DNA of 64,000 bases, from NCBI RefSeq assembly GCF_003334405.1, contig NZ_QOWM01000002.1; one strand, given 5' to 3'. Below are positions 45,999 to 48,395 of this stretch, piece by piece. Below the pieces are notes generated by a model that saw only the letters and a program-made list of their open reading frames with translations, made no database searches and was not told where the DNA came from. The DNA comes from Escherichia coli (lineage in GTDB: Bacteria > Pseudomonadota > Gammaproteobacteria > Enterobacterales > Enterobacteriaceae). A program made the position numbers and the translations under genes. Positions within the stretch are counted from its first letter, which is position 1; every line of letters begins with the position of its first letter.

Positions 45999-46724
45999 TC
46001 AGAGTCTGAAGTCTTCCCCAAGGTATACACGCTTAACGTGTTCGTCTTGTAAGATTTCTGTAGGCGTGCCGTGGGCGATCAAATGCCCCTGACTGACGAT
46101 ATAAGCGCGTTCACAAACCGCCAGTGTTTCACGCACGTTGTGGTCAGTGATCAGCACGCCCAGGCCGCTGTCGCGCAGGTGCTCAATGATGCGTTTAATG
46201 TCGATAACCGAGATCGGGTCAACCCCGGCAAACGGTTCGTCGAGCAGAATAAATTTCGGATTCGCAGCCAGTGCGCGGGCAATTTCTACACGGCGACGTT
46301 CACCCCCGGAGAGTGACTGCCCCATGCTGTCACGCAGGTGCTCAATGTGAAACTCTTCCATCAGCTCGTTCGCGCGGTCTTCACGTTGTTCAGCAGACAA
46401 GTCGTCACGAATTTGCAGTACCGCCATCAGGTTATCGTAAACGCTGAGGCGACGGAAAATGGAGGCTTCCTGTGGCAGATAGCCGATACCGCGGCGCGCG
46501 CGTGCATGCAGAGGCAGCAGACTGATATCGTCATCATCAATAATGATGTTGCCCGCATCGCGCGGCACAATGCCTACAACCATGTAGAAAGTGGTGGTCT
46601 TACCGGCACCGTTTGGCCCCAGCAGACCGACAATTTCCCCGGAGTTGACGGTCAGGCTGACGTCTTCTACCACGCGACGGCCTTTATAGGCTTTTGCAAG
46701 GTTCTTTGCAGTTAATGTTGCCAT
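45999..46724 (-). CDS. lptB: LPS export ABC transporter ATP-binding protein LptB
   Basis: 241 aa, Walker [13 protein letters not shown] signature LSGGERRR. Confidence 0.96.
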
Positions 46725-46730
46725 AACGAA

Positions 46731-47288
46731 TTAATTACCCTTCTTCTGTGCCGGGGTCTGGCCTTTGTTGTTTTTGTCCTGCAGCTGCGACGGCACCAGA
46801 ACGGTTGTTACGCGCTTGCCTTTGTCGCTGAAAGCCTGCATTTTCTGCTCTTTCACCAGGTAAGTGATCTTATCGCCCTTAATGTTGCTATCGACCTGCT
46901 GCAGATAAGCATTACCCGTCAGAACGACAAAATCTTTTGCCAGTTCGTAGTGCATCTGGGAAGCGTGACCTTCAACGGGTTTACCGTTGTCCTGCATCTG
47001 GTAGAACGTTGCCGGTTTACCGTAGCCGTCAATCACTTCTTTACCTTGTTCGCCGCCCGGACGGGTAACGACCACTTTGTCGGCATTAATTTTGATGGTG
47101 CCCTGGGTGACGATGACATTACCGGTAAAGGTAACCACGTTGCCTTGCATATCAAGAGATTGCTGGTCCGATTCAATGTGGATCGGCTGATCAGTGTCTC
47201 CGGTTACGGCAAATGCCGGAATGCTGGCGGCCAGAAGTGAGCTGGCAAGCACAAGATTAAGGCTGAGTTTGTTTGTTTTGAATTTCAT
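46731..47288 (-). CDS. lptA: LPS transport periplasmic protein LptA
   Basis: 185 aa with signal peptide; start moved to internal ATG. Confidence 0.93.
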   Translation of the reverse strand: MKFKTNKLSLNLVLASSLLAASIPAFAVTGDTDQPIHIESDQQSLDMQGNVVTFTGNVIVTQGTIKINADKVVVTRPGGEQGKEVIDGYGKPATFYQMQDNGKPVEGHASQMHYELAKDFVVLTGNAYLQQVDSNIKGDKITYLVKEQKMQAFSDKGKRVTTVLVPSQLQDKNNKGQTPAQKKGN

Positions 47289-47832
47289 AGGATGTTCTAA
47301 CCTTTTCAATCAGCTCGGCGTTCTTGCTGCGTAAGTTGCCGCGCATTTTCAGACCGCTGGAGTTAAATGTTGTTCCGTATAACGTGACGAGGTCTTCAGA
47401 GGTAACATCCTGCGTCACCAGATTGATCTGCGCGTTATCCGTCGTGATTCTGCGAAGTTGAGAGTCTGGCACAAGTGCGTTGACTTCAACGTGTCCATAT
47501 AAATAGAGCATCCGGTCATTGGTCAGCTTGGCTTTATCTGCTTTTACGGACCATGTCGGGATTTTATCCTTATCAAACGTGGTAAGTACCGGCTGCGTAA
47601 ACCACGAAACGGCCTGATCGGAATAATATTCAACGTGTTGAGCAATCAATCGATAGCTTAGTGCCCCTTCTGGGTTATAGACGAGCGTGTCCGTATGCTC
47701 GCTTTTATAGGTGGGATCATTGTTGTTGACGACCACCTGGGCGGTATCGTCTTTTTCGGCCATATTAATGCCGATCATCACCAGAACCGCCAGTGATAAC
47801 ACAATGATAACCCAACGTCTGGCTTTACTCAT
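47257..47832 (-). CDS. lptC: LPS export system protein LptC
   Basis: 191 aa with N-terminal TM anchor; 32-bp overlap with lptA start. Confidence 0.93.
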   Translation of the reverse strand: MSKARRWVIIVLSLAVLVMIGINMAEKDDTAQVVVNNNDPTYKSEHTDTLVYNPEGALSYRLIAQHVEYYSDQAVSWFTQPVLTTFDKDKIPTWSVKADKAKLTNDRMLYLYGHVEVNALVPDSQLRRITTDNAQINLVTQDVTSEDLVTLYGTTFNSSGLKMRGNLRSKNAELIEKVRTSYEIQNKQTQP

Positions 47833-48395
47833 ATCGATTGCCCTTTGGCTTCATCCAGTTTGCCCTGCGCCAGGAGTAATAAGTCGCAAACTTCGCGCAC
47901 TGCGCCACGACCGCCAGCAATGCGCGTCACGTAATCGGCGCGCGGGATCAACAGTGGATGCGCATCGGCCACGGCGACGCTTAAACCCACTTTTTCCATT
48001 ACCGGCCAGTCGATGAGATCATCGCCGACATAAGCCACATTTTCCGGGGCAATCGCCAGTTTTTCCAGCAGATCGCTAAAGGCGATCAGTTTGTTTGACT
48101 GCCCCTGATACAAGTGAGTGATCCCCAATGTGGCACAACGATCTTCTACCAGTTTAGCCTTTCGCCCGGTAATGATAGCGACTTCAATATCAGAGGTGAG
48201 CGCACAACGAATGCCATAACCGTCACGAACATTGAACGCTTTCAGCTCTTCGCCATTATTGCCCATATAAATCAGGCCATCTGACAGTACGCCATCGACA
48301 TCGAGGATCAGCAGACGAATGTTCTCTGCTTTTGCTATAACGTCGGCGCTGACAGGGCCGTAACAGGTCGCAAGCGACGCACCTGCTTTGCTCAT
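47829..48395 (-). CDS. kdsC: KDO 8-phosphate phosphatase (HAD family)
   Basis: 188 aa with HAD motif LILDVDGVLSDG. Confidence 0.93.
   Translation of the reverse strand: MSKAGASLATCYGPVSADVIAKAENIRLLILDVDGVLSDGLIYMGNNGEELKAFNVRDGYGIRCALTSDIEVAIITGRKAKLVEDRCATLGITHLYQGQSNKLIAFSDLLEKLAIAPENVAYVGDDLIDWPVMEKVGLSVAVADAHPLLIPRADYVTRIAGGRGAVREVCDLLLLAQGKLDEAKGQSI

Follow-up and report, generated by a model that had tools for sequence, protein, structure and literature searches.

[quoted passage not shown] In the part of the Tian and Salis series cited in that review, coupling falls with distance and is absent at −25 nt. Natural overlaps tend to be short, more than 80 % of them being below 30 bp (PMC12548453). 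Two described types of gene pair come close to the lptC-lptA junction of Escherichia coli considered here. The classical −4/−1 pairs (ATGA, TAATG; trpE-trpD type) are likewise co-directional, encode pathway partners and have the stop of one gene near the start of the next; they are read from one mRNA, as the literature describes for lptC-lptA on the transcripts from yrbGp and kdsCp. However, the spacing at lptC-lptA is −32, which would oblige a terminating ribosome to move 29 nt backwards, and lptA possesses promoters of its own as well as an open start region. The coat-lysis pair of phage MS2 (−50 nt), as cited in PMC12548453, likewise combines an out-of-frame overlap of tens of nucleotides with a start inside the upstream gene. 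In the form in which it is cited there, this type depends on a structure that hides the downstream start, whereas the lptA start is among the least structured of its neighbourhood. The nearest relative of all is the locus itself in strain K-12, where lptC (b3199) and lptA (b3200) have the identical start, stop, 32-nt overlap and promoters inside lptC. Nothing differs, and the window, i.e., the whole 64-kb stretch of DNA that was analysed, represents another strain. The junction has been described by the Polissi/Dehò laboratory (Benedet 2016, PMC4986956, and reportedly also Sperandeo 2006 and Martorana 2011).

On the minus strand of the window, to which all coordinates below refer, the operon runs in the order yrbG-kdsD-kdsC-lptC-lptA-lptB-(rpoN). 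The lptC gene (47257..47832; ATG at 47832, TAA 47259..47257) encodes 191 aa and lptA (46731..47288; ATG 47288..47286, TAA 46733..46731) encodes 185 aa. The identities that an initial annotation of this DNA had assigned to the two genes hold, as judged from the ORF list with its translations, from RefSeq and from full-length NCBIfam matches. LptC scores 364.1 bits against the equivalog model NF008142 (TIGR04409; Pfam PF06835; curated cut-off 230 bits) over residues 1-191, end to end, and is identical in sequence to PDB 6s8n chain C. LptA scores 368.4 bits against the equivalog NF008143 (TIGR03002; Pfam PF03968; curated cut-off 234 bits), its residues 1-185 aligning with positions 1-184 of the 184 in the profile, and is identical to PDB 2r19 from residue 27 on. 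Codons 1-27 of lptA (47208..47288) encode a signal peptide with a lysine-rich n-region, a hydrophobic core and an AFA/V cleavage motif; translated from the ATG at 47288, the N-terminus of LptA reads MKFKTNKLSLNLVLASSLLAASIPAFA up to this site and VTGDTDQ after it. The cleavage site is predicted by inference and from database knowledge. The PDB constructs of LptA start at residue 27/28, directly after the predicted signal peptide, in agreement with the one originally proposed from this ATG.

A 1.2-kb query around the junction, under which kdsC, lptC, lptA and lptB are annotated, matches all 5426 complete E. coli genomes (5426/5426) at an identity of at least 99 %. One genome carries a second lptC-lptA copy on a plasmid (5427 places in 5426 genomes). 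The neighbouring junctions are of conventional design: kdsC and lptC meet in an ATGA (47829..47832), a 4-nt stop/start overlap with the classical coupling spacing, and lptA and lptB are separated by a 6-nt gap (46725-46730). Should classical coupling operate anywhere in this block, kdsC-lptC would be its more likely site.

The stretch shared by lptC and lptA (47257..47288) has the sequence ATGAAATTCAAAACAAACAAACTCAGCCTTAA. It had been noticed as a 32-bp out-of-frame overlap, and this description is correct to the base, since the ORF coordinates, RefSeq and the literature agree on it. In the RefSeq record of K-12 MG1655, lptC occupies 3342836..3343411 and lptA 3343380..3343937, which gives the same 32 nt; the annotation of strain ER1709 agrees with K-12, and Benedet et al. 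(PMC4986956) state that the two genes “overlap for 32 nucleotides”. The overlap is thus already known, being both RefSeq-annotated and published. Within it, the lptA frame is offset by one base relative to that of lptC. The lptA ATG (47286..47288) takes its A and T from the TAT codon of LptC Tyr182 and its G from the GAA codon of Glu183, and it lies 29 nt upstream of the lptC stop codon (TAA, 47257..47259), which itself spans lptA codons 10-11. LptC, which ends in SYEIQNKQTQP before the stop, is encoded here from part of Y182 to P191 and the stop, and LptA from M1 to L10 plus two bases of N11. The “about 10 codons” of lptC said earlier to be overlapped consequently consist of two Tyr182 bases, nine sense codons and the stop. 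The pair is a true case of out-of-frame co-directional overlap, in that two real genes use different frames and the overlap is kept in relatives. No other co-directional overlap in the 50 kb around the locus in K-12 is as long, the rest measuring 1, 4 or 8 nt. Nine extra open codons alone are not unlikely to arise by chance, and the non-random part is their conservation.

Within the species, 5419 of the 5426 complete genomes carry the 81-nt junction without a single difference. For a wider comparison, loci from 80 Enterobacteriaceae species were collected with LptA as the query (LptA 80-100 % identical to that of E. coli). The ATG is present in every one of these (80/80) and the overlap is exactly 32 nt in 75/80, although these species, like the more distant samples below, are related to one another and the counts do not represent independent events. 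An earlier stop shortens the overlap in 3/80, to 20 nt in Pluralibacter gergoviae (earlier TAA) and to 17 nt in two others, and in 2/80 the lptC TAA has apparently been lost, giving an overlap of 101 or 170 nt. The latter two are the insect-associated Entomohabitans teleogrylli (L059; CTTCA; 170 nt) and Tenebrionibacter intestinalis (L070; CTTAC; 101 nt). Here an apparent mutation of the TAA, be it real or a sequencing error, lets the lptC frame (around locus positions 2501-2670) cross the whole signal peptide into the coding region of mature LptA.

The LptA homologues listed for E. coli came from Enterobacteriaceae only, at 82 % identity or more, and other orders were reached via contigs of diverged LptA representatives. 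Outside Enterobacteriaceae, the overlaps as called range from 8 to 38 nt and are all equal to 2 mod 3: 20 nt in Grimontia (Vibrionaceae), 8 nt in Ca. Providencia siddallii (Morganellaceae), 26 nt in Pantoea sp. Aalb (Erwiniaceae), 29 nt in Aeromonas, or 14 nt with the 175-aa RefSeq start, and 32/17, 38/17, 20/8 and 14 nt on further gammaproteobacterial contigs. It follows that the two genes keep one relative frame throughout, no matter which of the in-frame starts is taken. The LptA entries of Aeromonas (L091, locus 2501-2529) are in conflict with one another, proteins of 180, 175 and 187 aa falling into one 90 % cluster; of these, the 175-aa form, MKNANL..., has a more signal-peptide-like N-terminus than MPSISMKNANL..., the 180-aa form. 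An ATG built from TAT plus G also occurs in Grimontia, Pantoea sp. Aalb and the further gammaproteobacterial contigs, and loci with a homologous start share a conserved LptC Tyr codon followed by G (TAT GAA, TAT GGA or TAT GAC). The conserved frame, together with the Tyr-codon ATG in other orders, indicates that the arrangement predates the Enterobacteriaceae. Across relatives, the sole variable is how far LptC continues beyond this Tyr. Exceptions are one AT-rich contig with a truncated lptC, where a gap of 21 nt precedes lptA, and the 650-kb reduced genomes of the endosymbionts LN890288.1 and OZ026457.1 (L098/L099), in which the order is kdsC-lptC-lptB and lptA lies about 190 nt downstream of lptB. 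In these endosymbionts the lptC-lptA overlap is dissolved by rearrangement.

The shared bases do not constrain both proteins equally. Among the variant cells of the 32-nt overlap, 92/100 affect third codon positions of lptC, where lptA has its second positions, and the substitutions are almost all synonymous for LptC. Thus the LptC tail YEIQNKQTQP is identical in 69/75 species, while LptA residues 2-11 exist in 20 versions (F/S, K/R, T/I and others) that keep their basic character. This pattern implies that the LptC frame dominates and that the tolerant n-region of LptA absorbs the change. The broader LptC model TIGR04409 stops at residue 182, the exact site of the lptA ATG, and LptC residues 185-191 are disordered in the crystal structure (PMC2963376). 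Together these two limits mean that the overlap encodes mostly a tail beyond the folded domain of LptC.

Immediately before the ATG, and still inside lptC, lies the initiation region of lptA (47289..47318), which is A-rich, poor in structure and conserved at synonymous sites of lptC. Its Shine-Dalgarno (SD)-like AAGG (47301..47304), 12 nt before the ATG, is weak; the duplex energy of −3.4 kcal/mol ranks 35th among 45 neighbouring genes. Unfolding the segment from −20 to +15 costs 4.9 kcal/mol, the 4th lowest value among the same 45 genes (mean 9.8), and the minimum free energy of a 116-nt junction segment does not differ from that of shuffled sequences (z = 0.15), i.e., the junction has no extra stability. 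The consensus fraction at third positions of lptC rises from 0.61 over most of the gene to 0.75 at −94..−31 and 0.91 at −30..−1 relative to the lptA ATG, and the block CTGATTGAAAAGGTTAGAA upstream of the ATG is almost invariant. Judged from the alignment, such synonymous-site conservation of the 30 nt before the ATG fits a ribosome-binding region of lptA's own.

The literature describes two kinds of transcript that reach lptA. Those from yrbGp and kdsCp carry lptC and lptA on one mRNA, while others begin inside lptC, at the minor promoters lptAp1 and lptAp2 upstream of lptA, the former of which requires sigma-E (PMC4986956). When lptC is not transcribed, lptAB is still driven by a promoter within lptC, at a lower level (PMC8727689), and this lower level of LptA and LptB has been ascribed to weaker promoters (PMC4986956, PMC8727689). 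In the window, a sigma-E-like motif, GGAACAA-N16-TCTGA, occupies 47349..47376 inside lptC, 61-88 nt upstream of the lptA ATG. It is the sole match in the 64 kb, yet 28/100 shuffled sequences contain at least one, and the motif is a candidate for the published lptAp1, to which it probably corresponds. A sigma-70 promoter scan of 46700-47900 found nothing, and a 2012 NAR paper searched for sigma-E promoter coordinates does not mention the gene. A second and weaker sigma-E-like motif, CGAACTG-N17-TCTGA, is present inside lptA (46919-46947), about 200 nt upstream of lptB. The validated sigma-E promoter that Rhodius et al. 2006 place “far upstream of yhbG (lptB)”, within the neighbouring ORF, may match either motif, the one in lptC or the one in lptA, as far as that description goes.

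The motif at 47349..47376 is intact in a minority of other genera, its GGAAC being kept in 31/75 species and its TCTGA in 8/75, and it looks lineage-restricted in this comparison. Being poorly conserved, it cannot account for the block of conserved sequence that precedes the ATG. This block extends further than an initiation site: over about 80 nt of lptC (47289-47367), the windowed consensus, taken over 79 Enterobacteriaceae species and including the synonymous sites of lptC, is 0.92-0.96, compared with about 0.75-0.85 elsewhere in both genes. Since a ribosome-binding region covers some 30 nt and the sigma-E motif is not conserved, the part from −31 to −79 needs another account. It might correspond to the lptAp2 promoter, to an element of a 5' UTR or to an RNA feature.

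From the overlap of the first lptA codons with the end of lptC it had been concluded that translational coupling is implied. This does not follow, given the spacing of −32, lptA's own promoters and the open start region. The spacing lies outside the range in which termination and re-initiation are efficient (about −4 to +3 nt). Coupling through the unfolding of RNA was rejected as well: the lptA start region is not sequestered and has no secondary structure over it (z = 0.15; 4.9 kcal/mol), so that a ribosome on lptC would find no hairpin to unwind there. Moreover, lptA-lptB transcripts that originate from promoters inside lptC imply that lptA can initiate without translation of lptC. A literature search retrieved no paper joining lptA, lptC and “translational coupling”, and the old names yrbK/yhbN likewise yielded nothing relevant. 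Direct measurements of lptA initiation, in the presence or absence of lptC translation, did not turn up in the literature searched, and a modelling preprint that uses the synthesis-rate table of Li et al. gives no Lpt numbers. Coupling may nevertheless occur on the full-length operon mRNA.

The locus is the known junction of the lipopolysaccharide-transport genes lptC and lptA. The explanation that we consider probable is that initiation at this junction is mainly independent, and that the overlap is a compact and conserved arrangement rather than evidence of tight coupling. According to this explanation, most translation of lptA would begin de novo at a start region that belongs to lptA itself, is A-rich and unstructured, has a weak SD and lies within the 3' end of lptC. 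Since some of the lptA-lptB mRNA originates at promoters within lptC, this region would have to work alone. Where the long operon transcripts are concerned, ribosomes that end lptC may add some re-initiation or transiently block the site; at an overlap of 32 nt their contribution, be it positive or negative, would probably be small. Three points count against this account. The weakness of the SD and its distance of 12 nt from the ATG could mean that initiation needs upstream ribosomes; the conserved length and frame of the 32 nt, with LptC and LptA as physical partners, would fit selection for co-translation; and the reduced LptA/LptB level without lptC transcription may contain a share due to coupling that is not separated from promoter strength.

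The strongest alternative is that ribosomes ending lptC at 47257-47259 re-initiate 29 nt upstream or are handed over locally, a tight coupling that would fix the LptC:LptA synthesis ratio on the operon mRNA. We regard this as unlikely. The two genes do overlap and are co-transcribed from yrbGp, the SD of lptA is weak and distant, the length and frame of the overlap are strongly conserved, the products belong to one complex, and the adjoining kdsC-lptC junction is a classical ATGA. However, coupling weakens as overlaps grow and was absent at −25 nt in the one systematic series, as it is cited in PMC12548453; some of the mRNA from which lptA is expressed begins inside lptC and carries no lptC ribosome; its start has no inhibitory structure to be unfolded; and the literature search found no report of lptC-lptA coupling. 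In addition, the LptA bridge probably requires more than one LptA for each LptC, which a strict 1:1 re-initiation could not supply.

A related proposal, on which we are decidedly doubtful, sees the overlap as a selected stoichiometry device in which lptC ribosomes feed or gate lptA initiation across the 29 nt of backward distance. It could draw on the ATG being locked into the Tyr-Glu codons and on the synonymous conservation that extends about 60-80 nt upstream. The interplay could also be negative, ribosomes on the last ~10 lptC codons covering the lptA start so that the overlap acts as a damper and not as a coupler. Geometry is what suggests this, the segment from the SD to the start of lptA being no further than one ribosome footprint from the last lptC codons, but LptA and LptB are higher, not lower, when a strong promoter drives lptCAB (PMC8727689), a condition in which transcription is changed too, and we hold a net damping effect to be very improbable. 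The weakest proposal, that lptA starts at another codon and that the 32-nt overlap is an annotation artefact, can be dismissed as almost certainly wrong: the TTG and GTG on which it relies do lie in frame within the open frame, and the TTG is the first possible start in the ORF list, but SD pairing is worse at both than at the ATG, the alignment to the NCBIfam LptA model begins at residue 1 of the protein made from the ATG, and neither alternative codon matches the ATG in conservation.

The candidates are few. The lptA frame opens right after a TGA and offers three possible starts, TTG (−21), ATG (0) and GTG (+36). The upstream TTG (47307..47309), from which LptA would gain MKRLEHP and the overlap would grow to 53 nt, was rejected: its SD energy is −2.2 kcal/mol and an in-frame TGA separates it from the ATG in 6/80 species. 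Also rejected was the downstream GTG (47250..47252; codon 13), which lies outside lptC and would leave no overlap; it is missing in most of the 80 species and lacks an SD (+1.2 kcal/mol). A start at this GTG would strip the basic, lysine-rich n-region from the LptA signal peptide. The ATG at 47288, by contrast, is the only conserved start of lptA in the species comparison; RefSeq agrees with it, and the start codon first proposed is thereby upheld.

Beyond bookkeeping, the overlap matters little. It is a practical constraint when lptC or lptA is to be engineered, for deleting or tagging the 3' end of lptC hits the start and the ribosome-binding region of lptA; the constraint is familiar in the Lpt field, where plasmid-borne copies are used to avoid it. 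The refinements offered here are small: a sole conserved start, the dominance of the LptC frame, an origin of the arrangement and its frame before the Enterobacteriaceae and an additional non-coding constraint on a stretch of about 30-80 nt of lptC ahead of the ATG. Were coupling at −32 true, the rules of translational coupling would gain a modest extension, and lptC-lptA would stand as an efficient natural case of long-overlap coupling, contrary to what synthetic constructs suggest.

Some proteins encountered among the LptA relatives deserve mention. A metagenomic protein of 348 aa (P0189) has an N-terminal half that is weakly LptC-like (24 % identity over 160 aa, E = 0.002), and the same frame continues into a signal peptide resembling that of LptA and then an LptA domain. 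Possible origins are a natural fusion of LptC with LptA, a frameshift and an artefact of gene calling. Two other proteins, P0202 (362 aa) and P0269 (283 aa), also contain extra sequence beside the LptA domain, which in P0202 is without significant similarity to LptC.
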